Below, in pieces: positions 5,786-51,385 of a DNA stretch of 64,000 nucleotides. Below the pieces are notes generated by a model. That model made no database searches, had not been told where the DNA came from, and worked only from the letters and a program-made list of their open reading frames with translations. Source of the DNA: a virus (Duplodnaviria > Heunggongvirae > Uroviricota > Caudoviricetes); IMG/VR virus record IMGVR_UViG_3300042402_007287; one strand, given 5' to 3'. Position numbers and translations under genes: made by a program. Within the stretch, counting starts at the first letter, position 1. The number at the start of each line of letters is the position of its first letter.

Positions 5786-5866
5786 GACACTCCCGAACGA
5801 TAGTGAGGGTGTATTTGTGTCCGATATGAACTGAACGAATCAGTTGGATAATCTTAGGGTAATTAG
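5786..5866. repeat. conserved intergenic element, copy B (stem GGACAC/GTGTCC)
   Basis: Aligns with 3634..3706. The stem bases differ between copies but pairing is kept, i.e. covariation. Confidence 0.55.
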
Positions 5867-6519
5867 TTCCATTTATTCAGTTCGGGAAATCTATCATTGA
5901 AACAAATAATGTTACAATATTTGTAATGGTCTTGGAAATCTGTTATGGGGACCAAATGGGATGAATTTAAATAATAAAAACTTTGGAACCCGTGCTCTCT
6001 GAGGTAGTTTGCAACTTCGACAAGTTTGACACCTGAATCTATATATGTTTTTCCATATTCGAATTGTATAATCTTTATATCTGTTAGTCTTTGTTCGAAC
6101 CCTTTGATTACCGCAAACTCAAAACCTTCCGTATCTATCTTTAAAAAATCTATGTTGGTTAAATTATTTTCTGTGAGATAATTTACCCCTTTGTCTACAT
6201 TAAAGAAAATTGTATTATTGTCGACACGGCATGTTTGCCTTCTATCTATAAAAGATTGAAAATACTTGTAATATTTTAAAGTATCTTTCTTGTCACCTAA
6301 ACCAAATTCATTGTAGAAAGCTTTGGTATTTGAATGAGGTTGATTTTTTAAAATATGTAAAAACTCTACGTTTGGGTCAAAATAATGTACTTCCTTTGGA
6401 TAGTTTAAAAATAAACTGTCACTTCTACACCCCACGTCGAATATAACATCTATTTCATTTTGAATGAAACTTATAAACCAAGATTCTCCATTGGTGTGAG
6501 GATTATCGTTTTGAAACAT
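5863..6519 (-). CDS. FkbM-family methyltransferase
   Basis: DVGCRSDS ... FDPN ... LKIDTEGFEFAVIKG is typical of the Methyltransf_21/FkbM family. Confidence 0.55.
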   Translation of the reverse strand: MFQNDNPHTNGESWFISFIQNEIDVIFDVGCRSDSLFLNYPKEVHYFDPNVEFLHILKNQPHSNTKAFYNEFGLGDKKDTLKYYKYFQSFIDRRQTCRVDNNTIFFNVDKGVNYLTENNLTNIDFLKIDTEGFEFAVIKGFEQRLTDIKIIQFEYGKTYIDSGVKLVEVANYLREHGFQSFYYLNSSHLVPITDFQDHYKYCNIICFNDRFPELNKWN

Positions 6520-9666: not shown

Positions 9667-10368
9667 TTATTTTTTCTTTACACAATTGGGATATCTTTTA
9701 CCGAACATGGTTTTCATCCCTTTCTGAGTATAACCCTTCCAGCATCTTTCATTTAACTCAGACTCATTGGTTTCAAATTTTTCGATTGGTTCCATTTTAC
9801 TTTTCAAAGTGGTACGGAAATTCTGATTGGGTTTTAAAACCATGATTTGTCCCACGTAAAGATTATCGGGAGTTATAGGAGTTTCATAAAAATCAAACCA
9901 ACATCTTCTAAAATCCTCTTTTGTCACTGTTCTCATTTCTTCCAAATATGGGTCAAGAATATATATATTTTTTTCATCAACACCTATCACAACTGAGGAA
10001 TGTCCCTCGGGTGGGTCACCACAAAACCAATCTACAATAACAGGAACACCTGAATTTACTATATTTGATAATTCTGATATTGTAGAATTATTTTTAAGAA
10101 TTACATCGAATCCCAAATTCTCAGCAGCACAAGCCATATCTTCACTACGACATCCCAACTCATAAGAGTGACCACAAGCTGCTGCCAAATCTTTTTCCGA
10201 AATATCTAAACCATAAAAACCCATAACCATTCTGAGGGATGCGGGACCACATGTACTGTCATCAGATTGAAGGTAATGAGGTACGTCAAGCAAATTTGGA
10301 GCTTCCTCCTCTTTGATAACTTGTTTTATAAGTTCAATAAGTTCTTGTTCCGTTAGTCTGACTTTCAT
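9667..10368 (-). CDS. papain-like (C39-like) cysteine peptidase domain protein
   Basis: SDDSTCGPASLRMVMGFYG, with a downstream His in PPEGHSSVVIGVDEKNIYILDPY. N-terminus MKVRLTEQELIELIKQVIKEE. Confidence 0.5.
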   Translation of the reverse strand: MKVRLTEQELIELIKQVIKEEEAPNLLDVPHYLQSDDSTCGPASLRMVMGFYGLDISEKDLAAACGHSYELGCRSEDMACAAENLGFDVILKNNSTISELSNIVNSGVPVIVDWFCGDPPEGHSSVVIGVDEKNIYILDPYLEEMRTVTKEDFRRCWFDFYETPITPDNLYVGQIMVLKPNQNFRTTLKSKMEPIEKFETNESELNERCWKGYTQKGMKTMFGKRYPNCVKKK

Positions 10369-10370
10369 AA

Positions 10371-11636
10371 TTAAATAAATATTTCATTGTCCCAACCAAT
10401 AACAACTCCATGCTCATCTAAAACTAAACCTAATTTTTTCGCAAGTTCATCAGCTTCATGGTCGTTTTTCAATTTACCAAATAACGCCTCACCTTCCATA
10501 GGGTCGTCTATCCTTTGTACTTGGAAGAATAGATTAAATTTATTACCATCTTCAGGTTTGTATCTTATTTTGGGTATGTCACTGTCAGAGGAGACAATAA
10601 ACCAACCTTGTTTTGCGGCATAGTCACCAAACTCTTTGTCAAACCAAGTAACAAACTTTGCAATTCTGGCATATGGATAAACTATCTTGGAATCATCATC
10701 ATGAAGTCTCCCGAAATCATCGACTTTCATACTTTCATTCAGATTTTCATCCCATTTTTGAGTACAAGAATTGAACCAAGGTCCCTCAGGAAAATTTTTA
10801 CCTTGTCTTTTCTCTGTTCGATATTCGGCATAGCGTGGTGGTTTACCTTCAGTGTGAGAACTCAAAAGGGGTAAATCAAAATCTCTTATCTCTTTTTGCA
10901 TATCGTCATAGGTCTCGTAATATTTTATCATCTCACATTCATTATCGAGCGTCCAAGAAATCATGAATTTAGTTTTTTCGGGTGTGTTAGGTTCGAAAGG
11001 TTGTTGCATGATGGGCAATACCCCTGATGGAGTTGTGGATATTTTTATTGGTGGAGATTGAAAATTCGGTTGTATTTGGTGTTTTGTTTGTAGAATCGGT
11101 TTTGGCATTGTTGGTTCATAAATTGTACCACAAATGTTCCCCCACCAACTATATTTTTTATGGTCATAGTCATGATATTGACGTTCGCTCGGATTTTGTG
11201 GGTATTTGGAAAAAGTTATCAAGGAAATGAATTCTGTATCTTTTTTAGGGATAGAACTACTTCCATCTGTTGGTATTTTTGTAACCCAAGCTACACACCA
11301 TTTTCTTACAGGTTTAATTATCGCGTCGGGTTTTTCAGATTGCGAAATCAAATAGTCGTCATCCAATAGTTTTTTATCTTTAACTAACTTGTCGTATTGT
11401 TGATGAAGTCTTGCAACCCAATTGTCTTTATAAACCTCACCTCCCACATAAAAATAAAACTTTGAATTTTTAAATTCATTAGATTTTCTTATTGATTCGT
11501 CGGACAGTCTTTTGGCTTTGTTATAAATTTTTAAGGCCTTCTCATATTCTAATTTGTTCGTGAAAGTATATGTTTCTTGTTCAGAAATCAAACCCATCAC
11601 TTCCCGAATTCTTTTTATGTTTTCTGACAATCTCAT
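10371..11636 (-). CDS. hypothetical protein, 421 aa
   Basis: Long ORF with uniform coding character. N-terminus MRLSENIKRIREVMGLISEQE. Confidence 0.5.
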   Translation of the reverse strand: MRLSENIKRIREVMGLISEQETYTFTNKLEYEKALKIYNKAKRLSDESIRKSNEFKNSKFYFYVGGEVYKDNWVARLHQQYDKLVKDKKLLDDDYLISQSEKPDAIIKPVRKWCVAWVTKIPTDGSSSIPKKDTEFISLITFSKYPQNPSERQYHDYDHKKYSWWGNICGTIYEPTMPKPILQTKHQIQPNFQSPPIKISTTPSGVLPIMQQPFEPNTPEKTKFMISWTLDNECEMIKYYETYDDMQKEIRDFDLPLLSSHTEGKPPRYAEYRTEKRQGKNFPEGPWFNSCTQKWDENLNESMKVDDFGRLHDDDSKIVYPYARIAKFVTWFDKEFGDYAAKQGWFIVSSDSDIPKIRYKPEDGNKFNLFFQVQRIDDPMEGEALFGKLKNDHEADELAKKLGLVLDEHGVVIGWDNEIFI

Positions 11637-11926
11637 AACTTATCAACTTCCTTTACAAATTTGATACATTTCTCAGAAACTCTACCTTTTTCATGGTCGG
11701 AAATGGTAAGTTTAACTTTATTGTAATTTACAGTGATATCTGGATGATGATTTTGTTTTTCAGCAATTCTCGCAACACTGTTCACAAATTTCATCGAATC
11801 TTTAAAATCATCAAACGTGAAGGTTTTGGAAAGTTGTTTTTTAGAATTTCCCCACCCCTGAAGGTTCTCAGATTCTTCAAGTATCAGAAATAAATTTCTT
11901 TGAATAGACTGTTGTATTTTATTCAT
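11633..11926 (-). CDS. phhB: pterin-4a-carbinolamine dehydratase (PCD/DCoH)
   Basis: FTFDDFKDSMKFVNSVARIAEKQNHHPDITVNYNKVKLTISDHEKGRVSEKCIKFVKEV matches the PCD signature FKDF..AEK..HHP...NVYNKV..LSTHE..GLSE. Confidence 0.8.
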   Translation of the reverse strand: MNKIQQSIQRNLFLILEESENLQGWGNSKKQLSKTFTFDDFKDSMKFVNSVARIAEKQNHHPDITVNYNKVKLTISDHEKGRVSEKCIKFVKEVDKL

Positions 11927-12455: not shown

Positions 12456-13661
12456 TTATACAAATACTGATGGAATTTCTTTCCAAGAGGTTGTGAACTT
12501 TTGAGACATGAACTCTTGTCTCATTTCCCATTCTTTTTCTACGTTTGCTGGTGGTTGAACTATTTGTATCGAACTTGAAAAGAGTGTCCCCTGTTCTATT
12601 GATTCAGGCATTAGGTCATTGAATATGATTCCACACTTTTTATATTTTTTTCCTGTTTTGAACATCTTCTTCAAATGTGGATAGATTTGAGACCATATCT
12701 CATTTTCATCTCTTGTCTGTTTTTGGAATAGTATTTGTTTACTGGTGTAGTGTTTTTCATCTTTATGTTTATTACCCGCAATGAATATGGTTGCTCTGTT
12801 TGGAGATATTCCATTCTCGTGCAACTTTTTAACACCACTTTTTACGTATGAATACATAGCCTCGGCTATTTGGTCAAACGTATCAATATCTTTTCCAAAT
12901 GACCTTGTTGACGCCACGTTTCTTTTCAATTTTGGAACAGGTTGAACGGGATGGCAATACATTCCAAGTAATTCCATTTTTGTTTTCAACCCATTTACTG
13001 TCATCATCTTTCTCACAAGACCATCGTTCAACATTACGAATTGTCCAACACTATCCACACCAATCATTTTCAACTTCTTATACCATTTTCTCCCGATTCC
13101 CCAAACCTCATCAGCTGATATTGTGTAAAGTAAATTCCTTACATTTTGTAAAGTCCAATAAGAACATACTCCGTTATATGAGTCTTGTTTTTTGGCAATG
13201 TATGAAGTTAGTTTTGCCAATGTTTTATTTGGACCAACACCGATTGAAACAGGAATTCCAACCAATCTTTTCACTTCGTTTTTAATAAGTAAAAGTCTAT
13301 CCATCAATTCATCATCAGGTATGTTTGAGAAGTCAACAAAACATTCATCAATAGAATATACTTCAACTTCGGTAGCATACTTTTTTATTATTGTCATGAC
13401 TCTGTCAGACATATCACCGTAAAGATTATAGTTGGAGGAGTATACACAAAACCTGTGCTCTTCCATGAAATCTTTTTTTAGGAAGAATGGTTCACCCATT
13501 TTAATTCCAAGGTCTTTCGCTTCTTGAGAACGAGCGATAACACAACCATCGTTGTTTGATAACACAACTGTTGGTCGTCCGATTGAAATGGGATTAAAAA
13601 CTCTTTCACAACTAACATAGAAGTTGTTACAATCGACTATCCCTATCTTCTTCTTTTCCAT
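12456..13661 (-). CDS. umuC: Y-family (translesion) DNA polymerase, UmuC-like
   Basis: MEKKKIGIVDCNNFYVSCERVFNP...VVLSNNDGCVIARSQEAKDLGIKMGEPFF closely matches the UmuC N-terminus. Confidence 0.9.
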   Translation of the reverse strand: MEKKKIGIVDCNNFYVSCERVFNPISIGRPTVVLSNNDGCVIARSQEAKDLGIKMGEPFFLKKDFMEEHRFCVYSSNYNLYGDMSDRVMTIIKKYATEVEVYSIDECFVDFSNIPDDELMDRLLLIKNEVKRLVGIPVSIGVGPNKTLAKLTSYIAKKQDSYNGVCSYWTLQNVRNLLYTISADEVWGIGRKWYKKLKMIGVDSVGQFVMLNDGLVRKMMTVNGLKTKMELLGMYCHPVQPVPKLKRNVASTRSFGKDIDTFDQIAEAMYSYVKSGVKKLHENGISPNRATIFIAGNKHKDEKHYTSKQILFQKQTRDENEIWSQIYPHLKKMFKTGKKYKKCGIIFNDLMPESIEQGTLFSSSIQIVQPPANVEKEWEMRQEFMSQKFTTSWKEIPSVFV

Positions 13662-13874
13662 TTAATACAATACAATTATTTCACCAGGATTGTGCGCAGG
13701 AACATCATAATGATAACCGTTTTTTTTTAAAATGTCTACGACGATTTCATTCATCTTTGTTGACCTACCTGTGATGATTTTCACAGGAAAACTTTCATGA
13801 TGAAGGTATAAAAAATTCAAAACTTCGAGTGGTACATCTATGTGAAGTAGTCCATGTAAATCTAATTCTTCCAT
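13662..13874 (-). CDS. Smr-domain protein
   Basis: LDLHGL...VKIITGRS...IVVDILKK matches the Smr pattern DLHG...IIhGkG. Confidence 0.5.
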   Translation of the reverse strand: MEELDLHGLLHIDVPLEVLNFLYLHHESFPVKIITGRSTKMNEIVVDILKKNGYHYDVPAHNPGEIIVLY

Positions 13875-14080
13875 GTTTTATAGTTTGAGATGAACCAATA
13901 CCCATGGACAAAAAGAACTGCAGTATTCACCGCAATTAAAGGATAGTCAGATTTGAGTAACGCATAAATCAACCATAAAATTGCACCCGTTGAGTTAGCA
14001 ATTCTCAATTTTAACATGTCTTTAAAGAAAAAAGATAGTAACACAGCTGAGGTGGCAACCCATCCCAAAATTTCAATCAT
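13862..14080 (-). CDS. small membrane protein with 2 TM segments
   Basis: 72-aa hydrophobic ORF. Confidence 0.4.
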   Translation of the reverse strand: MIEILGWVATSAVLLSFFFKDMLKLRIANSTGAILWLIYALLKSDYPLIAVNTAVLFVHGYWFISNYKTWKN

Positions 14081-14083
14081 AAA

Positions 14084-14401
14084 TTATAGTTTATTTAAAA
14101 TCCAATTTACTCTTCCCCAAACATTTGATTGTCCTTCGTATTTTCTAATCTTAAAACATTCCTTCTCGGTGATAATAACTAAATCTCCTTCGTGTGGCTC
14201 AATAGAACGGTCAATAACGAGGATATTTCCTGTCCTTACTCCAAGTGTGTTTGGACCTTTATATTGAAAATAAAAGGTTGTGTGCACGTCCTGAATGATT
14301 AGGTCATTCAGGTCAAGACGTTTGTCTACATAAGATTCCGCAGGAGATGCAAATCCTGTGGTTCTTGAGCTAATGGATAGTTCTGAACGTAGAGTTGACA
14401 T
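14084..14401 (-). CDS. umuD: UmuD-like protein (peptidase S24 fold); the Ser nucleophile and Cys/Ala-Gly cleavage site appear to be absent
   Basis: GFASPAESYVDKRLDLNDLIIQDVHTTFYF aligns to UmuD [30 protein letters not shown]. The GDSM position reads GPNT. Confidence 0.75.
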   Translation of the reverse strand: MSTLRSELSISSRTTGFASPAESYVDKRLDLNDLIIQDVHTTFYFQYKGPNTLGVRTGNILVIDRSIEPHEGDLVIITEKECFKIRKYEGQSNVWGRVNWILNKL

Positions 14402-16212: not shown

Positions 16213-16611
16213 TTATTCCCCGTACATACTAGGTTTAAGACTCGGAAATTTCTTAGCGAATTTCTTTATATGAACACCTGCAATTGTGTTTGCCATGTTC
16301 TCTTCGGGTCCACCTATATCTTTAATAACATCTTTTTCTGATAATCCCATTTTTTGGAATTGATACTCATGTATCCATTCATGTGAAATTGTTCTTAGAA
16401 TATCTATCAGAAGTCTGTTTGATGCTAAGACTATTATTTCATCGTTCTTTCTGACCCCTGTGGTCATTTCACCTTTTCTTTGATTAGATAAAACTATTGT
16501 TATAGGTTTTTCCAATGCCATTTCAGACTGTAGAAACTTCAGAAAAATTTTAATTGTTTCCAAATCATTACTTGGAACGAGATTATCTGTATTTTTGAGT
16601 TTAACTTTCAC
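16213..16611 (-). CDS. HExxH motif protein, putative Zn-metallopeptidase-like; 132 aa
   Basis: ISHEWIHEYQ. Same length and core as 2336..2734. Confidence 0.4.
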   Translation of the reverse strand: MKVKLKNTDNLVPSNDLETIKIFLKFLQSEMALEKPITIVLSNQRKGEMTTGVRKNDEIIVLASNRLLIDILRTISHEWIHEYQFQKMGLSEKDVIKDIGGPEENMANTIAGVHIKKFAKKFPSLKPSMYGE

Positions 16612-16624
16612 CGATAATAAATAT

Positions 16625-16828
16625 TCAAACTATTTCAATCTGATACAATTTAGCAAACTTTTGAATAACATTTGTAAGTCCGTTGGGTAAATTGTCCGAG
16701 GTTATTTTGAAAATTGGGTTACCTTTGAGGTTGTCTACATAAACAAAATCTAATTGATAAAGTTTTTCCATACTCGGGTAATAATGGTATAAACCCTTTT
16801 TGAAATTTTCAAGAATTTGAGAGTTCAT
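16625..16828 (-). CDS. hypothetical small protein
   Basis: 67-aa ORF. Confidence 0.3.
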   Translation of the reverse strand: MNSQILENFKKGLYHYYPSMEKLYQLDFVYVDNLKGNPIFKITSDNLPNGLTNVIQKFAKLYQIEIV

Positions 16829-17927
16829 TTGTTAGTTTTAGAGCTTGAGCAATTACTTGATGCATGTCATAATAAACATAGGATGCTAATCGACCACCAA
16901 ATATATACTTATTCTCCAACTTGGCCAAGTTATTATATTTCTCGAAAATTGAGGTATTTTTTTCATCCCTGATTGGATAGTAAGGTTCGTTGTCCCCATC
17001 ATAATCAGTGGGAAACTCATAACTTATAATTGTTCCCTTTTGATTTTGTGGGTCAAACCACTTATGTTCAAGAATTCTAGTGTATGGAGTTTCTCTATCT
17101 GTATAGTTCACAACAGGTATACCTTGAAAATTATTTATATCCAATCGTGTTGTACTCCACTTCAAACTTCTATATTCAAGTTTTCCGAATTTGTAATCAA
17201 AGAATCTATCTATTGGTCCAGTATAAATTATTTTCTGTGTTTGTTTTTCTAAATTGTGTTGATAATCAAAAAAATCTATACCTAACCTAACCTCTACGCC
17301 CTCTAACATTTTTTCGAATATTTGTGTATATCCGCCGATAGGCATACCTGTATATTTGTCATCAAAGTAATTACTATCCCAACTGAACCTTACAGGTATT
17401 CTTTTGATAATAGAAGGAGGTAAATCTTTACAATCTCTGTTCCACTGTTTTTCTGTATACCCTTTTATAAGTTTTTGATAAATTTCGTTCCCAACCATCG
17501 AAACCGCCTGCTCTTCAAGGTTAGAAATCATACCATTGTACTTTGTTTGTTCCAACTTAGCCTTAGCCAACTCAGGGTCATTGATTTTCCAAAGTTGGTT
17601 AAAGGTCCACATGTTGAATGGGAGTGTATACCTTTCTCCTTTGAAGTCGGCAATTACATTATGAGTGTATTGACGAAACTCAGCAAATTTGTTCACGTAG
17701 TCCCATAACTTTTTGTCGTTTGTATGGAAAATATGGGCACCGTATTTGTGAACGTGAATACCACCGTCATTTTCAGTATAACAATTACCACCTACGGTCC
17801 ATCTCTTGTCGACAACGAGACACTTTTTTCCTTTCTGAGTAAGTTCGTGAGCACAAACACATCCGAAAGGTCCTGCACCGACAATTATATAATCAAAATT
17901 GAGACGGGTCGAATCTAAAACTATCAT
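16809..17927 (-). CDS. glf: UDP-galactopyranose mutase
   Basis: About 60 percent identity by eye to E. coli Glf across the whole length: DYIIVGAGPFGCVCAHEL, HKYGAHIFHTNDK, KGYTEKQW, IIKRIPVRF, YTRILEHK, YYDMHQVIAQAL. Confidence 0.93.
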   Translation of the reverse strand: MIVLDSTRLNFDYIIVGAGPFGCVCAHELTQKGKKCLVVDKRWTVGGNCYTENDGGIHVHKYGAHIFHTNDKKLWDYVNKFAEFRQYTHNVIADFKGERYTLPFNMWTFNQLWKINDPELAKAKLEQTKYNGMISNLEEQAVSMVGNEIYQKLIKGYTEKQWNRDCKDLPPSIIKRIPVRFSWDSNYFDDKYTGMPIGGYTQIFEKMLEGVEVRLGIDFFDYQHNLEKQTQKIIYTGPIDRFFDYKFGKLEYRSLKWSTTRLDINNFQGIPVVNYTDRETPYTRILEHKWFDPQNQKGTIISYEFPTDYDGDNEPYYPIRDEKNTSIFEKYNNLAKLENKYIFGGRLASYVYYDMHQVIAQALKLTNELSNS

Positions 17928-19056
17928 TTGATACGGTTGGAGCGGACAATTTTTGGGTTATTTCGTTTTTCCAATTTACCAAGAAATCACTTGTATCGTA
18001 ATAAGCTCTGGTTTCAATCAAAAATGAAGAACCTGGCCAAGGATTTACTCTGTCTGAAGACAACATATAATCCAAATTTCTCAGTAATTCTTCATTACGA
18101 TTCAAACTTTGAAGTAGGAAATTCAAATATATATAATGTTCGTTTCTCATTGGAGCAAATTGTCCAGCCCAATAATAGTGTTGAATTGCATCTTCTAATT
18201 GACCCAAAAATTGAAGGGCTTGTCCCATCATGATGAATGCGAAGTATGCCATTTCATCAAAACGAGTGGCGGTTTTTTGATTATGCCAATCGTGAACTTG
18301 TTCTAAAAACCTATTGTAATACCAAATACTTCTTCGAGCATACTCTTCGGAGTGAAGTCTTCCAAATGGAAGTTCATCAGGATTACCATAACAATCTGCA
18401 TAACTTTTAGCTATATACCATAAATGATATGGGTCATCTTTAACTTTATTACCAACAACTTTATCAATTTCCAATTCTAAAGCGTCTCTCAGAAATTTAC
18501 GAGGAACATGCCATGTTTCTCCATCTTGGGAAACTAAATGACGAAAACTGAAAGGTAGATTTATTCTTACAAAACTTTCTCCGATTTCAGGTAAATGTAT
18601 TGTTTCGTGACGTTTATCATCCGCAAAAAACCATGGTAACTTAGCATTCCATAACCAAGTTCTGAAATACTTTATATCTGCAGCAGATGCGGGTACATTG
18701 AAGCTATCAATAGTGGTGTCAGAAAGAATATTCCAATCGAAATCTTCATCAATTTGTAATCTTTCGTCCGCATCCATTCTCAAAATCCAATCACAACCAT
18801 GATTTGCTTGAAGGGCTCTTTGGAGTGTATGGTTTCTATTCCAACCTGGATAGTTCCAATCTATCTCATATGTGAATCCAGGAATACCTCTTTCATTAAA
18901 AAATTTCTCGATGATTTCTTTCGTGTTATCCTCTTTTCCATTACATTGGATTACCCAATAAGAAATGTGTGGAGCAACAGATTCTAACATTCTTGTGATG
19001 GTTTTGGCTTCATTGCCTACCATCGCGTTCATACAGATTTTTGGTTTGTTATTCAT
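17893..19056 (-). CDS. glycosyltransferase-like protein with an N-terminal GT-A/GT2-like region
   Basis: ICMNAMVGNE...WILRMDADERL contains a DxD-like motif. Sits directly downstream of glf. Confidence 0.45.
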   Translation of the reverse strand: MNNKPKICMNAMVGNEAKTITRMLESVAPHISYWVIQCNGKEDNTKEIIEKFFNERGIPGFTYEIDWNYPGWNRNHTLQRALQANHGCDWILRMDADERLQIDEDFDWNILSDTTIDSFNVPASAADIKYFRTWLWNAKLPWFFADDKRHETIHLPEIGESFVRINLPFSFRHLVSQDGETWHVPRKFLRDALELEIDKVVGNKVKDDPYHLWYIAKSYADCYGNPDELPFGRLHSEEYARRSIWYYNRFLEQVHDWHNQKTATRFDEMAYFAFIMMGQALQFLGQLEDAIQHYYWAGQFAPMRNEHYIYLNFLLQSLNRNEELLRNLDYMLSSDRVNPWPGSSFLIETRAYYDTSDFLVNWKNEITQKLSAPTVSNDSFRFDPSQF

Positions 19057-20296
19057 AAATGTAATTCATTACTTCTTCTTCTTCGAAATATTTTTTTATT
19101 GCCACGTGATTTTGGAATCTTTGTGATTCTTGTTTTTCTTCATCCCAATTCCAATCTTTGAATCCCAAGGATAAAATTCTTTCGTGGATTGCTTTATCAT
19201 AAAAGTCTCTAATAATTCTTGCTCTTCGATTTATATCTTGAGCATTATTATCAACCGTACTGTTACGATTATTCCATTGCAAATATAGGACACGTTTTAC
19301 GTGAATAAACCGTGTATGTAAAAAACTTCTTATTATAATCTCCAAATCATCCGCAACAGGAGTAAGTTTATTGTGTCCACCTATTTTGTGATATAGGTTT
19401 CTTTCCCACATTCTCACGTGGTCGGGCATGGATATATTGAACCTTATTGATAATGGATTTATATCAGGGTACCAGTGTGCCAAAATTTTTCTACCATCTA
19501 CTTCAACCCAAGTGTGACCAGCATAACCAAAATCAAAAAAATTATCATGTCTTGCATACCAACCACCTGTCCAATCATGGTCATAAGATTTCATCTCACC
19601 ATCCTCATATAATTCACAAACATCCGTATATAAAAATCCTGCATCAGGATATTTGATGATGGCATCATTACAAGTGGATAAACACTCTGTGGTCAAAGTA
19701 TCATCATGGTCCAACTCGACCAACCAATCACCATCACATAACATAGCTGCTCTATGTTTGGCCAAACCTACATTACCACCCGATAACGGGTAAATACGAT
19801 GAATTTTAACCCTGTAGTCTTTCGAAGAAATTTCTTTCAATAGGTTCCATGTTATTTCGTCAGGCGAATCGTCTACTACGACCCATTCCCAATTAGTCCA
19901 AACTTGAGACCTCAGACTCTCATAAGTTCTTTTAATTCTTTCATAAGTCTTATATGCTGGTGTGAAGACCGAAAATCGTGGTCTATGGTATGTAAGGTTT
20001 TTGTAAATAGCTTCCTTACATATCGTGTTAGCCAAATCATAATCACCCAAAGGATTTTCTATGAAAACATAAATTTGTTGTAATTGATAATGAGGTACAT
20101 TCACGTGAGTCCCAATCGAAACAATAATATCAGGTCTATACTTGGAATAATCTTCGGCCACATTATCTGTGTAAGGTAAAGAATAAACCATGATTTCTTC
20201 CCAAAGCCCTTCTTCAGAATAAATTGAAGTTTGTAATAATTCCTCACCCTGTTTGTACCAATTATAAACTATCGCACTCGGTTTTTTTGTCTTCAT
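19049..20296 (-). CDS. family-2 glycosyltransferase
   Basis: FTPAYKTYERIKRTYESLRSQVWTNWEWVVVDDSPDE...DWLVELDHDD shows a GT2 core with a DxD motif. Confidence 0.6.
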   Translation of the reverse strand: MKTKKPSAIVYNWYKQGEELLQTSIYSEEGLWEEIMVYSLPYTDNVAEDYSKYRPDIIVSIGTHVNVPHYQLQQIYVFIENPLGDYDLANTICKEAIYKNLTYHRPRFSVFTPAYKTYERIKRTYESLRSQVWTNWEWVVVDDSPDEITWNLLKEISSKDYRVKIHRIYPLSGGNVGLAKHRAAMLCDGDWLVELDHDDTLTTECLSTCNDAIIKYPDAGFLYTDVCELYEDGEMKSYDHDWTGGWYARHDNFFDFGYAGHTWVEVDGRKILAHWYPDINPLSIRFNISMPDHVRMWERNLYHKIGGHNKLTPVADDLEIIIRSFLHTRFIHVKRVLYLQWNNRNSTVDNNAQDINRRARIIRDFYDKAIHERILSLGFKDWNWDEEKQESQRFQNHVAIKKYFEEEEVMNYIYE

Positions 20297-20326: not shown

Positions 20327-20668
20327 TCAACAATCTCCGTCAGATTGCCAGTCTGTGAGAACAAATTCCAAATTTATTGCTTCAATTTGACGATATCTAT
20401 TCCTCCAAGCGGTAGCTTTCAGACCACCACTTGAAACAAAGTAGGTTAAATGGGGAGACTCACCTTTCTTTGCTAATTCTATCGCATCTTTTAATCTGTT
20501 AGCTGCCGCAGTTTTTAATCTATCAATATTCGGAATCTCTGCATTCATACCCCAACTCCACTCCAAAAGCTTCATCACGGTCCAACATTTATAAAAATCA
20601 AAATTGTCGAGGATATTTTCAATCATGGCATTTTCAGCCTCCTCGGGGTTTTTGTATCTCCTACTCAT
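20327..20668 (-). CDS. hypothetical protein; start re-set to ATG (MSRRYKNPEE)
   Basis: The track start at 20683 is TTG. The first ATG is 15 nt downstream. Confidence 0.4.
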   Translation of the reverse strand: MSRRYKNPEEAENAMIENILDNFDFYKCWTVMKLLEWSWGMNAEIPNIDRLKTAAANRLKDAIELAKKGESPHLTYFVSSGGLKATAWRNRYRQIEAINLEFVLTDWQSDGDC

Positions 20669-20693
20669 TTTACAAGTATACAAAAAAACAAGA

Positions 20694-20720
20694 ATAAAAA
20701 AAACCCACCTTTCGGTGGGT
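20694..20720 (-). terminator. rho-independent terminator (cccacc-tttc-ggtggg plus a T-run on the minus strand)
   Basis: Lies immediately after the stop of 20728..21531. Confidence 0.6.
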
Positions 20721-20727
20721 TAAACCC

Positions 20728-22299: not shown

Positions 22300-22824
22300 T
22301 TAAATTATTTTTTTGAAGTTATAAGCCACTGAATATCTGTGGTTTGCAAAACTTGAACTTGGTGGTCTACCTGAATGTGGGATAGAAGAATCGAAAATTA
22401 CCAACCTACCAGGTTTGGGTATTATGCTCGCAATTATCTCTGTATCAGGTGATAAACTTTCAGTAAAAATGGTTTCCGAACCCCAATTTATGTTCCATTT
22501 GGGATTACCATATAAAAGTGCTGTGATATCTGACTCATCTGTATGGAGAGCTGTAACATCTCCTCTCTTGTATGCATTTCGGAATGCTGAAAAGAATTTG
22601 TATTTTCCTGATATTATTGGTAAAGAATGTAATCGACCCAAAATCTTCCAATATATGGTGTTCTCAGGTATCTCTTTTATATAACCAATATCAGCACCTC
22701 CCTCTAATTGAACTTCGGAAAGATAAGGGACCTTTTCTTCCAAAATCCAAGAACTCTCCCTTAGAGTTTTGAACAACTCAGTTATTTCCTCAGGGGTGAG
22801 AAACTCATCAAAAACCTCAATCAT
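22300..22824 (-). CDS. 2OG-Fe(II) oxygenase, prolyl-4-hydroxylase-like
   Basis: An HxD...H...RxS triad: ALHTDESD ... IPHSGRP ... HRYSVAY. Confidence 0.6.
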   Translation of the reverse strand: MIEVFDEFLTPEEITELFKTLRESSWILEEKVPYLSEVQLEGGADIGYIKEIPENTIYWKILGRLHSLPIISGKYKFFSAFRNAYKRGDVTALHTDESDITALLYGNPKWNINWGSETIFTESLSPDTEIIASIIPKPGRLVIFDSSIPHSGRPPSSSFANHRYSVAYNFKKII

Positions 22825-23447: not shown

Positions 23448-24323
23448 ATGACAGATGAAAGGTTGAAAAGGTTGGCACAGCAACTTATCGGAATGTTCCG
23501 TAACGTTGAACATAACAATGACATTTTTAATGTGTTGAAAAAGGTCGCAAAAAAACAAGCAATATATTTTTCTAGTTTTACTCCTCAGGAGTTTTTGAAA
23601 TTTTATTTTTATATCTTGTCCTTGAAAAAAAAGGGAAATTTCGAATTCGCCGATTTCGCTTTGGAAAATCTTTTCTTCGCATCTCTCTTTTGGAAAACAG
23701 GTTCACAATATGTTGAGGAGTGTGGTGATTGTTATGGTGAAGGAAGATTTGAATGCTCAGAATGTGACGGAAGTGGTAACGAGTCGTGTTCGGAGTGTGA
23801 TGGTAGTGGTCAAGTAATTTGTAGTGATTGTGATGGGGAAGGTAAAATAGAAGGTGACGCAGGTGAAAAGGTTTCTTGTGACATGTGTGACGGAAGTGGA
23901 GAAGTTGATTGCGAGGAATGTGATGGCGGAGGTACAGTCAATTGTAGTCGTTGTGACGGTGAATCCCGACTTGATTGTCATAACTGTAATGCCGATGGCG
24001 AGTTAGAAGGTACGGATTCATCTATCGAGCTTATATTCATTTGTTCTTGGGATAAAAATCTAAAGAATCTTTGTGAATTAAATGTCGGGAGACCCGAACC
24101 TGTCGGAGCAAGGGAAAACATCGAAAACAACCCGAATATAATAACTCTCAATTATAGAGAATGGGGTGATTTAGATATAGAATTTTTAGAAGAGATAGAA
24201 GAAGGCGTTGTTTACTGTAATGAATTCGATGAGGAAAAACAAATTTTACTCAGTCCTCAGTTCGAAATCAGATATTACGGTTTCGATAGTTCACCTAAAA
24301 ATATAGATGAGTTTATCCAATAA
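23448..24323 (+). CDS. protein with eight DnaJ-type CxxCxGxG zinc-finger repeats
   Basis: CGDCYGEG, CSECDGSG, CSECDGSG, CSDCDGEG, CDMCDGSG, CEECDGGG, CSRCDGES, CHNCNADG. Confidence 0.6.
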   Translation: MTDERLKRLAQQLIGMFRNVEHNNDIFNVLKKVAKKQAIYFSSFTPQEFLKFYFYILSLKKKGNFEFADFALENLFFASLFWKTGSQYVEECGDCYGEGRFECSECDGSGNESCSECDGSGQVICSDCDGEGKIEGDAGEKVSCDMCDGSGEVDCEECDGGGTVNCSRCDGESRLDCHNCNADGELEGTDSSIELIFICSWDKNLKNLCELNVGRPEPVGARENIENNPNIITLNYREWGDLDIEFLEEIEEGVVYCNEFDEEKQILLSPQFEIRYYGFDSSPKNIDEFIQ

Positions 24324-26908: not shown

Positions 26909-28117
26909 GTGAATTGTAAAAAATATACTCTAACCAACACGGGTAACACTCTTGTAACATTTAGTTATAGAAAATGTGATTCAAGCGAATTTGAAAACCA
27001 AGTCCCACTCTTACCAAATCAAACAAAAAATGTTTGGGCAATTTACGATACCTTCTCTTTAAGTAATTTCTACGAAAATTCTTTAGTAATTAGTGAAGAA
27101 TGGTTTCAAAGGGATTTGAATAATTGTCCTACATGTAATGTAATAAATACCCCTTGTAATGGTCAAGTGGTAACAAGTAATGGTATACAAATAACTGGTT
27201 ATACTTTTAACTCAGTATGTTCAACTAATACATTTACCTATGGTCCAAACAACTACTCTTGTCAAGAAATCCCAATTACAATAAAACCTGGACCAGGAAC
27301 TGGTGTCGTGTCTTTCGGGTCAGGTGCAACTGTTACTTTTAGATTTAGTCAAGCCATCTCATCATTGATGTTCAATTCAGGTGTTTGGAATGGTGATGCT
27401 TTCCCGAATGGAGATAGAGTTACCATAACTTTAAACAATTCTCAAACTCCAATAATAACTCAATGTACAGGTTGTAATTTCAATATCAACAACGGTACAA
27501 TCACAGCGGTAAATACTGATGGATTAGCAAGATTTTTAGTTCAATCAACTTCCCCTTTCACAGAAATAACATTTTCATCTCCACCAAGTATACAATATGG
27601 CGGTGTAAGAATTAGTCTTTGTGAACTTACAAATGCAAACATTCCGACACCAACTCCTACAAGCCAAGCAACCGCAACTCCAACCCCGACTAGAACATCT
27701 ACACCAACCCCGTCAGTCACCGCAACACAAACTCAAACTCCTTCTGTTACCCCAACGATTGGACCTACACCTTCGGTAACTCCCACTAATACTACAACTC
27801 CCACAGTGACCCCAACAAATACTACGACACCTACAAATACCGCTACTCCGCCAACGACTCCACCCGTCACTCCAACAAATACAGGTACTCCAGCCGAAAC
27901 ACCGACAGTAACTCCAACTCCATCAATAACACCTTCTACGTGTGTTGGTTATGTATTGGATGCTGGTGGTGGAAGTGCATCAATAGAATGGTTCGATTGT
28001 GGTGGTAGTTATTTTACACAAACATTTAGTGGACAGCTCACCATATGTACGGATGGAAGTGGATATACAGTTACTATTGGTGCTGTTACGGTTGTTTCAG
28101 GACCATACCCTTGTTAA
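26909..28117 (+). CDS. Cys-containing N-terminal domain plus a long Thr/Pro-rich mucin-like linker and a small C-terminal domain
   Basis: About 110 residues of TPTPT/TPSVTPT repeats. Confidence 0.6.
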   Translation: MNCKKYTLTNTGNTLVTFSYRKCDSSEFENQVPLLPNQTKNVWAIYDTFSLSNFYENSLVISEEWFQRDLNNCPTCNVINTPCNGQVVTSNGIQITGYTFNSVCSTNTFTYGPNNYSCQEIPITIKPGPGTGVVSFGSGATVTFRFSQAISSLMFNSGVWNGDAFPNGDRVTITLNNSQTPIITQCTGCNFNINNGTITAVNTDGLARFLVQSTSPFTEITFSSPPSIQYGGVRISLCELTNANIPTPTPTSQATATPTPTRTSTPTPSVTATQTQTPSVTPTIGPTPSVTPTNTTTPTVTPTNTTTPTNTATPPTTPPVTPTNTGTPAETPTVTPTPSITPSTCVGYVLDAGGGSASIEWFDCGGSYFTQTFSGQLTICTDGSGYTVTIGAVTVVSGPYPC

Positions 28118-32730: not shown

Positions 32731-32755
32731 AAAAAAAGGGGTATTACCCCTTTTC
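32731..32755. terminator. hairpin GGGG-tatta-CCCC flanked by an A-run and a T-run
   Basis: Overlaps the stop codon of the methyltransferase gene. Confidence 0.45.
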
Positions 32756-33598
32756 AAAATCAAGTTCAGGTTGGTTTTTTTTATCTATGAAATGTTGTAC
32801 TCGTTTTTGAGCGACTCCACAGTAGTTTTCACTAAGCTCGATACCAATCCAATTACGGTCGGAAATAACTGCAGCAACCAAACTTGTTCCACTACCAGCA
32901 AAAGGGTCAAGAACCAAATCATTTTTATAAGTTAAAATTTTTATTGCCTTTAAAGGAATATCTAATGAAAATGTTGCCTTTGTCAATTGTTTCGTGTCGG
33001 CAAAATAATCCCACTCCCCGTAAACTAAATCCATGAACTCTCTTTTCTGTTCTTCAGTATACATCATTTTAGTTCGGGTCTTTCCCTCTTCGTTGGTGAC
33101 CTCCTCAGGGATTCCTACCCACTCTGGTTGACCTTTTACTTTCTTTATGTGGTTTTTCTTGTACGCCAAAATAACACACTCCTTGGGGTTGTAAATGTAC
33201 GGTGCGGATGGTGACATCCAAGAACCCCATGCGGTGGTTTTACTCCTATGAGGAGAATTTTCTTTTAGGTCAACAATCCCGAAAAACTTGAATCCAATTA
33301 TCTGCATTATCCGCCAAAGTTCAGACGCCATGAAAATTCTTCCACCCTGACTCTGACGATTTATTTCATATGGAATGTTCAAAGCAATTCTCCCATCTTC
33401 CTTCAACACTCTGAAAGCTTCTGTCATCCAGTTTGTTGAAAACAATTTATAATCTTCAAAAGGGATGTCGTCTTCAAAAGTGTCATAATCGATTCCTACA
33501 CCATAGGGTGGAGATGTTACTATGAGGTCAATTGAATTTTCGGGAAATGTTTTCATAACCTCAATACAATCACCTTGATATATCTTATTAGTTTGCAT
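32744..33598 (-). CDS. DNA methyltransferase, N6-adenine or N4-cytosine (beta class; N-4/N-6 methylase domain)
   Basis: Motif IV IVTSPPYGVGIDYD comes before motif I DPFAGSGTSLVAA. Confidence 0.8.
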   Translation of the reverse strand: MQTNKIYQGDCIEVMKTFPENSIDLIVTSPPYGVGIDYDTFEDDIPFEDYKLFSTNWMTEAFRVLKEDGRIALNIPYEINRQSQGGRIFMASELWRIMQIIGFKFFGIVDLKENSPHRSKTTAWGSWMSPSAPYIYNPKECVILAYKKNHIKKVKGQPEWVGIPEEVTNEEGKTRTKMMYTEEQKREFMDLVYGEWDYFADTKQLTKATFSLDIPLKAIKILTYKNDLVLDPFAGSGTSLVAAVISDRNWIGIELSENYCGVAQKRVQHFIDKKNQPELDFEKG

Positions 33599-33999
33599 TA
33601 TAATTTTCCTTCTTTTTTTAATTCTTCTCTAATTTTTGTTGCAGATATCTCCCCAACCTCTTGAGGTGGTATGTGTTCGATTATATCATAACCAACACCT
33701 CTACCAAAATTGACAGATTCGATATCAGGTATAATCATAACTTTTACTTTCTCGTCGGTCAAATATTTCCACAACTCTTTTTTGATATTGGATTCAACTT
33801 CTTGAGCACTAAAAGGATTTTTATCATCAGGTTGAATATCTCTTATACAAATTAAAACATTTTTTCCTTCGTTCAGACATTCATCCACAATCCATCGATG
33901 TCCCCCGTGAAATGGTTGGAACCGTCCCACAAACATAGAATATTGCTTACCTCCAGTATTTTTTAATTTCGGGTCACCCTCAACGTGAATTTTTCGCAT
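33598..33999 (-). CDS. cytidylyltransferase-like nucleotidyltransferase; closest to archaeal/bacterial NadM-type NMN adenylyltransferase
   Basis: GRFQPFHGGH (the HxGH motif) followed by a short alpha/beta body. Resembles M. jannaschii NMNAT GRFQPFHKGH. Confidence 0.55.
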   Translation of the reverse strand: MRKIHVEGDPKLKNTGGKQYSMFVGRFQPFHGGHRWIVDECLNEGKNVLICIRDIQPDDKNPFSAQEVESNIKKELWKYLTDEKVKVMIIPDIESVNFGRGVGYDIIEHIPPQEVGEISATKIREELKKEGKL

Positions 34000-34420
34000 A
34001 ATCTAAAACTTTTTTTGCTGACTCAACTATACTTTCATTGGTTGTATCAATCTCAAGATAGTTTTCTGTTGGTTCATTGTATTCTTTAACAAAGAATTGT
34101 TCTCTACCTCTTTTTTCTGATGTATGAACGTAGACTTCTCTCAAATCATCCCCCATCTTTTCCTTGAACCTATCCCTTTGGTCTTTATATGGGGAAACTA
34201 AAGATACTAAAACATCAACTCCCTGGTTGTGAAGATATTGAGATATTTGTTGAGCAAGTTCAATATTCTTTCTTCTACCTGTTTTAGAGTAATCTTTATT
34301 GTCAAATAAATCTCTTAGGTCATCCCCATCAACATGGAAAAACTCTGTGTGAATAGACATAATCTGTTCACAGATAGTTGTTTTACCCGAACCAGGTTGA
34401 CCTGTTAGCCAAATAATCAT
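33980..34420 (-). CDS. cysC: adenylyl-sulfate (APS) kinase-like P-loop kinase
   Basis: IWLTGQPGSGKTTI, VDGDDLR, RRKNIELAQQISQYLHNQGVDVLVSLVSPYKDQRDRFKE and YNEP align with CysC [55 protein letters not shown] and YEAP. Confidence 0.65.
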   Translation of the reverse strand: MIIWLTGQPGSGKTTICEQIMSIHTEFFHVDGDDLRDLFDNKDYSKTGRRKNIELAQQISQYLHNQGVDVLVSLVSPYKDQRDRFKEKMGDDLREVYVHTSEKRGREQFFVKEYNEPTENYLEIDTTNESIVESAKKVLDYAKNSR

Positions 34421-40186: not shown

Positions 40187-41034
40187 ATAAAATAAGAAAT
40201 ATAATCACCAATCTAATATTGGAGGCACAGAGATATAAATTTTCTGATGATGTGAGAGATAGAATGAAATCCGTCACAGAAAAATTATGGTCTGATAGAA
40301 ATAAACCTTATAAAGGAAAAGAACTAGTTGATGTCATTCCTTTTAAATTAGCCGATGGAGTAGAGGGTTTAGCTAGAGTCGTGGTAAACCCAAGACTACC
40401 CTACATGGGTCAGATGGGTACAAAACCTCAAAAGTCAGTCGACCCGGCAGATATTGTAATCGAAGTAAATCCAAAACACTACGAGTCAAAAAAAACACTT
40501 TATCTTACACTATATCATGAAATGATACATGCCAGTGACCCAACACAATCTCATTTGTTTAGTCCCAAATATATGGTGACTTACAATGAGAAATCAGATA
40601 AAGATTATTGGGGTCATCCAATAGAATTTTTTGCAATTTCAAATGAATTTTTGGAGGGTTTGGTTCTCGAATTTGAAAGAAGAGTTAAAAGAAACAGAAA
40701 AATTGAAAACCTACAATTTTTAGAAAAATCATTAAAAAATATAATCAATTATTTTGCCAAGGGTGACCCACTATCTAAACTCTCGAAGGATATTTTATTT
40801 AGAATAAATGATGAACATTTGGGAAATGACCTTATCAGAGTTTTCAAAAATTTAACCACCGATAATCCTCAACTTGCAGATTTTATGTCTGAGAGAGGAG
40901 GAGAAGAACCTTACTACATTTATTATGTTGAATTGATTAAAAAGTATAACCCAGAAATTTGGAAAAAATTTCTGTCGATGTTATACCAAACTGGTTTCGA
41001 AATAAGAGATTTAATTCAAAAGACCGAAATCTAA
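40183..41034 (+). CDS. HExxH motif protein ([13 protein letters not shown]); start set to the ATG at 40183 ([16 protein letters not shown])
   Basis: The track start at 40162 overlaps the upstream gene. ATG 40183 forms an ATGA junction. Confidence 0.45.
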
Positions 41035-44000: not shown

Positions 44001-44138
44001 AACATTAGTATAACCTGCATCTGTATAGACTACACAACCTCCACTTAGTGATGGACACGGTGTATAAATAGTCTGTGATGCCACAGAATTACACGCATTT
44101 AGATAACTCGTCCCTGAATATACTACGTATGATGCCAT
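41031..44138 (-). CDS. collagen-like (Gly-X-Y) fibre protein, 1035 aa, with a C-terminal intramolecular-chaperone auto-processing (peptidase S74) domain
   Basis: About 730 residues of GAQGSQG-type triplets. The C-terminus [12 protein letters not shown]...FYWN... matches the S74 S|DxRLKxNI cleavage motif of phage tail fibres. Confidence 0.85.
41753..41878. repeat. perfect 63-nt tandem duplication inside collagen-like gene 1
   Basis: The unit encodes a repeated 21-aa [21 protein letters not shown] block. Confidence 0.6.
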
Positions 44139-50100: not shown

Positions 50101-50283
50101 ATTTGCAGGGTCTACTGTCATCAAATTTGTATCACCAACAGTATTACCGCTGAATTTAATTTTACCTGAAGGTGTAACCGTCAGAATAACCTGACCCGTG
50201 GTACCCTCATAACTTATAAATGGAGTACGGTTAGCAGTCCTCTCAGTGAAATTACTCGGAACAATTAAAATATTTTTTCCCAT
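47122..50283 (-). CDS. collagen-like fibre protein, 1053 aa, with a Cys-rich domain of about 100 aa before the C-terminal S74 chaperone domain
   Basis: ...GVTCQLNS...[45 protein letters not shown]... Confidence 0.85.
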
Positions 50284-51382: not shown

Positions 51383-51385
51383 ATT

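Follow-up and report, generated by a model that had tools for sequence, protein, structure and literature searches.

We analyzed a 64,000-nucleotide stretch of DNA from an uncultured phage (IMG/VR record IMGVR_UViG_3300042402_007287), referred to in its full length as the window, and centered the analysis on a module at positions 16809–20296 that encodes a UDP-galactopyranose mutase (UGM; Glf) and two glycosyltransferases (GTs), GT415 and GT387. Judged by its sequence, the mutase is a bona fide bacterial-type Glf (EC 5.4.99.9), and the phage can soundly be taken to make UDP-galactofuranose (UDP-Galf), as the mutase matches its family at equivalog level. We put at about even the chance that the trio works in the cytoplasm as a cassette for the O-glycosylation of virion proteins. 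The most likely acceptors would be three collagen-like fibres encoded in the same window, which would then bear Galf-containing glycans.

The assignment of Glf is supported along the length of the protein. It matches the Pfam family GLF (E = 1.4e-78) over profile positions 1–203 of 203 as well as NAD_binding_8 (E = 9e-24) and phrog_9677 (E = 2e-134), and scores 425.7 bits against the NCBIfam equivalog TIGR00031 (cutoff 303.75), with residues 11–368 of 372 covered. The alignment with E. coli Glf (PDB 1i8t; E = 5e-140) runs end to end and contains 202 identities in 353 positions (57.2%), near the 60% or so estimated by a first-pass annotation that had called the enzyme unmistakable. The FAD-binding GxGxxG motif is kept (VGAGPFG), as are the equivalents of E. 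coli H56, Y151, W156, R170, Y181, R278, Y311, Y346, and D348, which we take from the structural literature on UGMs to be active-site residues. The index of public metagenome assemblies lists an identical protein in 236 blocks. Glf proteins of the clade are 64–74% identical to each other, and identity to the window protein is 54–56% for gut and Streptococcus records and ~45% for the Rhizobium-phage Glf; a blastn search against phage records returned glf fragments only.

GT415 is an inverting-type glycosyltransferase of the GT2/GT-A class with an intact DxD. A ~100-residue α/β N-terminal domain precedes the GT-A catalytic domain, and residues 109–240 match Pfam Glycos_transf_2 with 60.8 bits (E = 2e-16; cutoff 23.3). 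It carries the motifs DDS (142–144), DHDD (196–199, within ELDHDDTL), and ADDxE (315–319); D196, H197, D198, and D199 are invariant in 50 homologues, in line with the earlier description of a GT2 protein with a DHDD motif. The best sequence match in the PDB was the chondroitin polymerase K4CP (1e-9), and when the AlphaFold2 model (pLDDT 75) was searched with Foldseek, the top matches were K4CP, SpsA, WrtF, TarP/TarS, and RmlT (E = 1e-13 to 1e-9). We found 976 homologues at E ≤ 1e-5, the top 120 of which are all ~415 residues long and 71–100% identical. GT415 is present in every related locus, including those that lack Glf.

GT387, according to its predicted structure, is a GT-A glycosyltransferase that carries a tetratricopeptide-repeat (TPR) domain. 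Its match to Pfam Glycos_transf_2 is marginal (24.8 bits; cutoff 23.3) and that to Glyco_tranf_2_4 weak and below cutoff, and its DAD motif (D95, A96, D97) is invariant. The C-terminal residues ~209–331 form a TPR-like α-solenoid, for which the AlphaFold2 model has a pLDDT above 90 (77 overall). Foldseek placed the glycocin S-glycosyltransferases SunS and ThuS at the top of the PDB matches, over the full length (E = 4e-10), followed by PcManGT, TarP, and GlfT2; LH3 was among the weak matches. The likeness to SunS is one of architecture only, since GT387 scores 15.4 bits against the SunS equivalog TIGR04195 (cutoff 350) and is thus not a member of that family. By sequence, the best PDB match was GmaR, a flagellin glycosyltransferase. 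Full-length matches in BFVD were glycosyltransferases of marine phages, klosneuviruses, pithoviruses, Dickeya phage JA29, and S-SRM01. There are 695 homologues at E ≤ 1e-3, of which the top 120 are near-full-length; some are labelled 'TPR repeat protein' by JGI, and fusions to Methyltransf_24/TylF-type (sugar-type) methyltransferases and to DUF6445 occur among independent full-length relatives. The neighbor of Glf is thus predicted to have the GT-A fold that the first-pass annotation had suspected, and both GTs keep an intact DxD motif. Both GTs are acidic (pI 5.5 for GT415 and 5.3 for GT387), and the maximum 19-residue Kyte-Doolittle hydropathy of 0.7–1.2 in the three proteins of the trio predicts no transmembrane helix in any of them.

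The module consists of exactly three minus-strand open reading frames (ORFs) with nearly no intergenic space, matching the location given in the first-pass annotation for a Glf and two glycosyltransferases. They are transcribed in the order GT415, GT387, Glf, and neighboring genes overlap by 8 and 35 nt in the longest-ORF calls (an alternative ATG start of GT387 at 19032, used in the JGI gene calls, gives a protein of 379 residues). The overlapping stop and start codons and the tight packing suggest co-translation. No terminator comparable to the hairpin found upstream of the trio by a consensus scan lies between the genes, where there are merely two weak stems of 5–6 bp, both within the GT2 coding sequence. 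An operon, as previously proposed, is therefore plausible on the shared strand, the overlaps, and the lack of an internal terminator, with the correction that Glf comes last in it and not first. The hairpin probably marks the upstream boundary of the transcription unit, whose first gene is probably the 118-residue ORF next to GT415. A promoter scan was uninformative (35 sites against 35.5 expected, the level of chance) and was not used.

In 18 of 21 IMG/VR loci the order of five genes is kept, from the 118-residue ORF (at 20327 in the window) through GT415, GT387, and Glf to an ORF with an HExxH motif, at amino acid identities of 65–75% (GT415), 59–67% (GT387), and 64–74% (Glf). Together with a GC content equal to the background (0.351 against 0.347 for the window), this conservation marks the module as old and selected, not a recent pickup. 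At one locus (L017), two inserted genes, one for a prolyl-4-hydroxylase-like (P4H-like) oxygenase and one GT9-like, separate GT387 from Glf, and at three others (L004–L006) both GT387 and Glf are absent and a convergent gene for an NAD-dependent sugar epimerase/dehydratase abuts GT415. We also considered that GT387 and Glf are a cassette inserted beside a core GT415, and dropped this idea because a more distant locus, L030, keeps the GT415–GT387 pair (46% identity) without Glf. The conserved unit is thus the pair of GTs, and the mutase is its variable part.

The more distant relatives place collagen-like genes and hydroxylase-like oxygenases in the same island. In one group (L022, L023, L028, and L029), GT415 is 62–66% identical to that of the window, and collagen-like fibre genes with a Peptidase_S74 domain lie on the same strand directly upstream of the island. 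In L022 and L023 the order is a collagen and Peptidase_S74 fibre, a 228-residue ORF, a P4H-like ORF, DUF6445, GT415 (62%), and a 620-residue fusion; in L029, it is collagen ORFs, a Peptidase_S74 ORF, two P4H-like ORFs, DUF6445, GT415, the fusion, methyltransferases, GT4, and GT9. Across the group, one to three more P4H-like ORFs and a DUF6445 ORF lie upstream of GT415, and the genes downstream encode methyltransferases, GT4, GT9 (with a borderline TibC-like domain), a sugar nucleotidyltransferase, and an aminotransferase; Methyltransf_21 genes are found within the L028 and L029 islands. L030 shows a second arrangement, in which a collagen-like ORF is followed by DUF6445, a GT415-like gene (46%), a GT387-like gene (46%), GT4, GT9, a T4-neck-like gene, and TerL. 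DUF6445 genes are widespread in cyanomyoviruses. Homology of DUF6445 to the 2-oxoglutarate (2OG) oxygenase of the window was tried as a further link and rejected (BLASTP E = 0.06–0.2, not significant), with only a C-terminal '(R)LV(I/L)FD...HS' motif in common.

The fusion that follows GT415 in the L022 group is 617–628 residues long and joins a P4H-like 2OG oxygenase to a GT387-like GT-A/TPR protein (for example L022:5366-7228, of the P0391-P0509 family; also in L028 and L029). It matches Pfam 2OG-FeII_Oxy_3 (E = 2e-18) and GT2, and its sequence matches in the PDB are GmaR (8e-7), ThuS (1e-4), and the EGLN/PHD prolyl hydroxylases (~1e-3). With at least 120 sequence clusters in metagenomes, the fusion is real and common. 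Oxygenase and GT are accordingly coupled in the relatives in two ways, fused in L022, L028, and L029 and adjacent in L017 and L029, a genetic link of the sort expected of systems that hydroxylate and glycosylate a protein (LH3/L230-like or Skp1 P4H-Gnt1-like); in the window, the P4H-like gene lies 2 kb away and is not syntenic across the clade.

At the position of Glf, three of these islands (L022:8464-9708, L028:3435-4682, and L029:13107-14357) encode a flavoprotein of 414–416 residues that is only ~25% identical to the Glf N-terminus. All 23 of its PDB matches are UGMs, the best being eukaryotic (T. cruzi and A. fumigatus; E = 4e-23 to 1e-22). On these matches it would be a eukaryote-type UGM-like enzyme in a bacteriophage that replaces the bacterial Glf by non-orthologous displacement. 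As two unrelated types of UGM occupy the same place, the furanose donor appears to be selected in the island.

These neighborhoods bear on whether the three genes serve one pathway at all. They might instead be mere neighbors, Glf being a stand-alone auxiliary metabolic gene for host Galf and the GTs using UDP-Glc or UDP-GlcNAc on an unrelated acceptor. GT415 does occur without Glf (L004–L006 and L030), stand-alone glf is found in many phage records (90 records), and a Galf-specific GT signature is not known, nor was one detected. In the clade sampled, however, Glf is found only alongside GT387 (18 of 18 loci), as the next gene or within 2 kb, and the second, unrelated UGM type in the same island of a sister lineage and the overlapping codons of the trio likewise speak for a linked function. 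We regard the unlinked explanation as quite unlikely.

For the cassette as a virion-glycosylation system, the following route can be proposed, with the phage taken to be a lytic freshwater jumbo phage. Glf would turn host UDP-galactopyranose into UDP-Galf, and GT415 and GT387, as soluble, inverting-type GT-A enzymes, would furnish structural proteins with a short O-glycan that contains Galf, either ahead of assembly or in the course of it. The likeliest acceptors would be the collagen-like tail fibres, which contain Thr, Pro, and Lys, and P4H-like 2OG oxygenases may first hydroxylate the attachment sites. GT387 might dock onto its protein substrate through the TPR domain, as is thought for SunS/ThuS and GmaR. 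GT415 would be the core transferase, and the neighboring sugar-nucleotide enzyme (Glf, the eukaryote-type UGM-like enzyme, or the NAD-epimerase) would set the sugar of each lineage. In its full form, in which P4H-hydroxylated collagen-like fibres are then O-glycosylated with Galf by the GT2 and GT-A/TPR pair, with the donor coming from a bacterial- or eukaryote-type UGM according to lineage, the scheme is tentative, and we would sooner expect it to fail in some part than to hold throughout. The analysis shows the identities, predicted folds, conservation, and neighborhoods of the genes, and from these we infer the donor of each GT, the acceptor, and the role of the glycan, which could be to stabilize the fibres, to shield them from proteases or immune defences, or to tune the host range.

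A protein acceptor, with the collagen-like fibres foremost, is suggested by the collagen genes adjacent to the island, by the protein-hydroxylase-like oxygenases that are fused or adjacent to GTs, by the likeness of the TPR-bearing GT to glycosyltransferases of proteins and peptides, by the soluble, acidic nature of the enzymes, and by tailoring methyltransferases in the islands. The three fibres of the window fit this role in composition. In each of them, ~250 G-X-Y triplets are combined with a Peptidase_S74 domain, an intramolecular chaperone, and Thr is the first or second commonest residue in the Y position (39–87 per protein), where Gln is also frequent. The fibres are rich in G-x-T and have some X-Pro-Gly and X-Lys-Gly sites; the third also has 20 Pro and 11 Lys in the Y position, and Y-position Pro and Lys are the canonical positions of collagen hydroxylation. 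The GC content of the fibre genes is 52%, compared with a background of ~33–35%. In the middle fibre gene, the G-X-Y run is broken every ~7 triplets. Collagen-like fibres were one of the targets listed by the first-pass annotation, and are now favored by the contiguous genes of two further lineages; its proposal of seroconversion through host glycans is disfavored, as described below. A Thr/Pro-rich protein of 402 residues, also listed there, is an alternative acceptor; it has no Pfam or PHROG match, and its gene lies in a locally GC-elevated region.

Two further genes of the window may act with the cassette. The P4H-like 2OG-Fe(II) oxygenase, a candidate partner, matches Pfam 2OG-FeII_Oxy_3 (E = 2.8e-8), an NCBIfam FlmC-family model (E = 1.6e-17, below cutoff), and PDB 9blq, a 'putative hydroxylase'. 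Members of its family adjoin or are fused to GTs in L017, L022, and L029. The FkbM-family methyltransferase is possibly a glycan O-methyltransferase; in relatives, the island itself includes methyltransferases of the FkbM type and others. The coordinates of all these features are given in Table 1.

Table 1 Features of the window that make up, border or may act with the glycosyltransferase module, and further genes named in the text.
Feature	Position	Strand	Description
GT415, GT2-family glycosyltransferase	19049–20296	−	415 aa; first in the trio; the conserved gene that anchors the island
GT387, GT-A and TPR glycosyltransferase	17893–19056	−	387 aa; middle gene of the trio
Glf, UDP-galactopyranose mutase, bacterial type	16809–17927	−	372 aa; last gene of the trio
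Terminator-like hairpin	20702–20721	−	8-bp stem with 5 GC pairs and a T-run; upstream of the trio and the 118-aa ORF
Conserved ORF	20327–20683	−	118 aa; immediately upstream of GT415
Conserved ORF with HExxH motif (SHEWIHEY)	16213–16611	−	132 aa; downstream of the sugar-nucleotide gene in all relatives
Putative ORF	16625–16828	−	67 aa; overlaps the Glf stop by 20 nt
Three tandem collagen-like fibre genes	41031–50283	−	1035, 994, and 1053 aa; Pfam Collagen (E = 1e-65 to 3e-94) and C-terminal Peptidase_S74
Cys-rich protein with mucin-like linker	26909–28117	+	402 aa; ~100-residue Thr/Pro linker (PTPTPS/TPTNT repeats); alternative acceptor
P4H-like 2OG-Fe(II) oxygenase	22300–22824	−	174 aa; HxD...H; candidate partner, 2 kb upstream
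FkbM-family methyltransferase	5863–6519	−	TIGR01444 (E = 5.5e-11)
Adenosine 5'-phosphosulfate (APS) kinase	33980–34420		146 aa; P-loop GQPGSGKT; from the window survey
Two DNA methyltransferases	32744–33598 and 55377–56216		N6_N4_Mtase and D12/Dam class

The same GTs could act on the host envelope. They would then add Galf to lipid-linked glycans of the host during infection (lipopolysaccharide O-antigen, capsule, or substrates of the general O-glycosylation of Bacteroidota), and such remodelling could block superinfection or the re-adsorption of progeny to lysing cells. At the family level, the nearest enzymes to GT415 do act on polysaccharides (TuaG, WcaA, PglI, K4CP, and TarP/TarS), JGI labels its homologues 'cell wall biosynthesis' or 'O-antigen biosynthesis', and Glf is classically an O-antigen or capsule gene; the exchange of sugar-nucleotide genes between lineages (Glf, the epimerase, and the eukaryote-type UGM-like enzyme) likewise recalls the diversification of O-antigen clusters. 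The membrane side of such a system is missing, however, which disfavors seroconversion: besides the trio being free of transmembrane segments, neither the window nor the islands show a flippase, a polymerase, a polyprenyl-phosphate GT, or a Gtr-like component, and the window survey found no component of a Gtr-type or O-antigen module (GtrA, GtrB, GtrC, or acetyltransferase). Seroconversion is typical of temperate phages, and no integrase turned up in the Pfam survey of the window. An envelope target would also leave the fusion or adjacency of P4H-like oxygenases, the collagen-like fibre neighbors, and the TPR domain unexplained, and we consider it unlikely.

DNA is the third conceivable acceptor, one that the first-pass annotation had not raised, with UDP-Galf or UDP-Gal transferred onto hydroxylated pyrimidines (5-hydroxymethylcytosine, 5-hydroxycytosine, or 5-hydroxymethyluracil) for evasion of restriction. 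A phage Glf (RL38J1 gp84) has been linked to DNA with galactose-(glucose)n-5-hydroxycytosine (PMC13326640). GT-A-fold DNA glycosyltransferases exist, and DNA-modification pathways, which are usually clustered, hold sequential GTs, pairs of a GT and an epimerase, and 2OG dioxygenases, sometimes near the terminase (Pyle et al., preprint); the window itself encodes 2OG oxygenases and two DNA methyltransferases. Against this, a Pfam survey of 97 ORFs in the 64-kb window found no thymidylate-synthase homologue, TET/JBP-type 5mYOX, C5-cytosine methyltransferase, dCTPase, or dNMP kinase, and none of these partners was found within ±10 kb of the cassette in the annotated relatives L001–L006, L028, and L029, a scope outside which ~80% of the ~320-kb genome lies. 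The oxygenases are P4H/EGLN-like and not TET/JBP-like, the methyltransferases of the window are of N6/N4 and Dam type, both GTs are acidic, and both have a GT-A fold, whereas the DNA GTs of RL38J1 are GT-B (PMC13326640). We hold a DNA acceptor to be very improbable, and it keeps the small weight that it has because so much of the genome falls outside the regions covered.

Returning to the glycosylation of virion proteins, several observations count against this reading. In the lineage of the window, the fibre genes lie 21 kb from the cassette, and in the 18 close relatives no collagen-like ORF was found up to 10 kb to either side of it; the cassette adjoins collagen-like genes in just two other, independent lineages (the L022/L023/L028/L029 group and L030). 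GT415 occurs without any mutase in L004–L006 and L030, and neither GT is assignable to Galf, so that the earlier proposal that the phage both makes UDP-Galf and transfers it is upheld for the making, through the equivalog match, and not for the transfer. The window oxygenase is not at the same position in other members of the clade, and P4H-like 2OG oxygenases are common in aquatic phages without known collagen substrates. The TPR-GT architecture hints at a protein acceptor and is suggestive, not diagnostic; the AlphaFold2 models are moderate (pLDDT 75–77) and the Foldseek TM-scores low (0.38–0.48). Finally, the phage is uncultured, and the case is built from sequence, predicted structures, and gene neighborhoods.

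The closest parallel for coupling a 2OG oxygenase to a GT is provided by Mimivirus L230 and animal LH3, bifunctional 2OG-oxygenase/GT-A proteins that form and glycosylate collagen hydroxylysine. As there, a 2OG oxygenase is coupled in the relatives to a GT-A enzyme in a genome with collagen-like proteins, and the L022-type fusion follows the same logic. Here, though, the oxygenase is P4H/EGLN-like rather than PLOD-like, the domain order is reversed, a TPR domain is added, and the host is a bacterium; in the window, the two activities are encoded separately, at a distance of 2 kb, and the proposed donor is UDP-Galf in place of UDP-Glc or UDP-Gal. For G-x-T-rich acceptors, a precedent is BclA of Bacillus anthracis, a collagen-like filament of the exosporium that is O-glycosylated on G-x-T repeats with rhamnose and anthrose glycans. 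The window fibres are G-x-T-rich in the same way (see the Y-position Thr counts above); BclA is bacterial and is not known to be coupled to Glf or P4H.

SunS/ThuS and GmaR share with GT387, and with the GT part of the fusion, an architecture of GT-A plus helical repeats, and act in the cytoplasm on folded protein or peptide acceptors; identity is only 13–15%, and these enzymes use UDP-Glc or UDP-GlcNAc as donor and modify Cys, or Ser/Thr in proteins that are unrelated. The GlfT2 enzymes of mycobacteria and Nocardia are GT-A proteins with DxD and a helical C-terminal domain, and were found by Foldseek with GT387 at E ~ 1e-4. That match is weak (TM-score 0.28, 11% identity), and GlfT2 is a processive polymerase with a lipid-linked acceptor and an N-terminal β-barrel.

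To our knowledge, the GT families of mycobacteriophages are unrelated to GT415 and GT387. These phages nonetheless encode cytoplasmic GTs that modify their own structural proteins (Freeman et al. 2023, as cited in PMC12619734); there the glycans are on the C-termini of capsid and tail-tube proteins, and neither Glf nor a collagen-like substrate, TPR-GT, or oxygenase is known to be involved. The lytic phage RL38J1 (Pootjesviridae) resembles the window in having its own bacterial-type Glf and several GTs, but its GT-B enzymes stand beside a 5-hydroxy-dCMP synthase (a ThyA homologue) and a nucleotide kinase, neither of which was found here, and its Glf is ~45% identical (PMC13326640). The literature searched contained nothing relevant on glycosylated collagen-like phage fibres or on Galf on phage proteins.

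Virion glycosylation by virus-encoded enzymes is well documented in chloroviruses, in mimiviruses, and recently in mycobacteriophages. The large uncultured phages that are dominant in lakes are essentially uncharted in this respect. If the proposed pathway is correct, it would be the first collagen-type hydroxylation and glycosylation pathway and the first protein glycosylation with Galf described in a bacteriophage. Receptor-binding fibres would then carry a diversifying, lineage-variable sugar coat that includes a non-mammalian furanose, with a bearing on host range, particle stability, resistance to proteases and grazing, and recognition of the particle. It would also account for many P4H-like 2OG oxygenases and TPR-glycosyltransferases in the genomes of aquatic phages that are so far unexplained, and Glf with two soluble GTs would be a compact toolkit for the enzymatic Galf-glycoengineering of collagen-like proteins. 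Should the target be DNA or the envelope of the host, the cassette would instead represent an unusual form of those systems, built on GT-A enzymes.

The window belongs to an abundant uncultured clade of freshwater jumbo phages, as indicated by the 236 metagenome blocks with Glf and the 976 GT415 and 695 GT387 homologues. That it is phage DNA follows from its collagen/Peptidase_S74 fibres, from the terminase that adjoins the homologous L030 island, and from IMG/VR contigs, up to 321 kb long, that carry homologous loci. Its coding pattern is a further sign: 92% of the sequence is coding, and one strand holds 79 of the 103 ORFs called greedily. A megablast search with 25 kb against 50,697 phage records gave no match, the phage being absent from the cultured or INPHARED set; a tRNA scan found none, and the contexts of homologues in the cultured phages Tunturi_5 and S-CRM01 were uninformative. 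When 185,579 species genomes were searched with GT387, there were two matches, both to contigs deposited as parts of metagenome-assembled genomes of Bacteroidota: L030 (CALAZP010000278.1; Saprospirales) and L031 (CAZJXE010000193.1; Weeksellaceae). As the GT island of L030 is accompanied by a T4-type terminase and a neck-like gene, this contig is itself phage DNA; it serves both as a hint to the host and as a flag for a binning artefact. The hosts are probably Bacteroidota.

In its traits the clade resembles the moraphages, a freshwater group of 200–307 kb with Bacteroidota hosts, DnaJ/DnaK, and four core glycosyltransferase orthogroups (PMC12619734). Shared are the freshwater habitat, genomes of 200–320 kb, a DnaJ gene, several core GTs, and the affinity to Bacteroidota; the likeness is one of traits, as none of the markers for moraphage placement (TerL, MCP, and PolB) lies within the window. 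DnaJ, a hallmark reported for the freshwater moraphages (PMC12619734), is encoded in full length at 56583–57500 (J domain, CxxCxGxG, and C-terminal domain), and the region at 51083–51712 also has glutaredoxin- and thioredoxin-like ORFs.

Of the ORFs that border the trio, the upstream one (118 residues) adjoins GT415 in nearly all relatives at 38–61% identity, and the HExxH ORF is 45–56% identical in relatives whether the preceding gene is Glf or the epimerase; neither has a match in Pfam, PHROG, or NCBIfam. The 67-residue ORF is called in L002 and not in L001 or L003 in the source annotation, and its coding status is uncertain. The sulfation genes invoked by the first-pass annotation are represented by the APS kinase, which overlaps a cytidylyltransferase-like ORF of 133 residues (HxGH motif; 33598–34420 region) next to one of the DNA methyltransferases. 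The two are possibly a pair for the supply of 3'-phosphoadenosine 5'-phosphosulfate, but no sulfotransferase was detected in the window.

Elsewhere in the window, positions 12456–14401 encode a UmuC/ImpB-like Y-family polymerase (401 residues; IMS, IMS_C, and DUF4113) and a UmuD/LexA-like ORF of 105 residues, a pair conserved in relatives at 73–89% identity. A 291-residue protein at 23448–24323 has many CxxCxGxG-like repeats and a faint match to BSD2/DnaJ zinc fingers; it is 30–36% identical in relatives and duplicated in L021 and L026. At 9667–10368, a Peptidase_C39-like cysteine protease of the papain fold (E = 2e-16) adjoins a 421-residue ORF without matches, and at 11633–11926 lies an unusual auxiliary gene, a homologue of pterin-4a-carbinolamine dehydratase (E = 2e-22).

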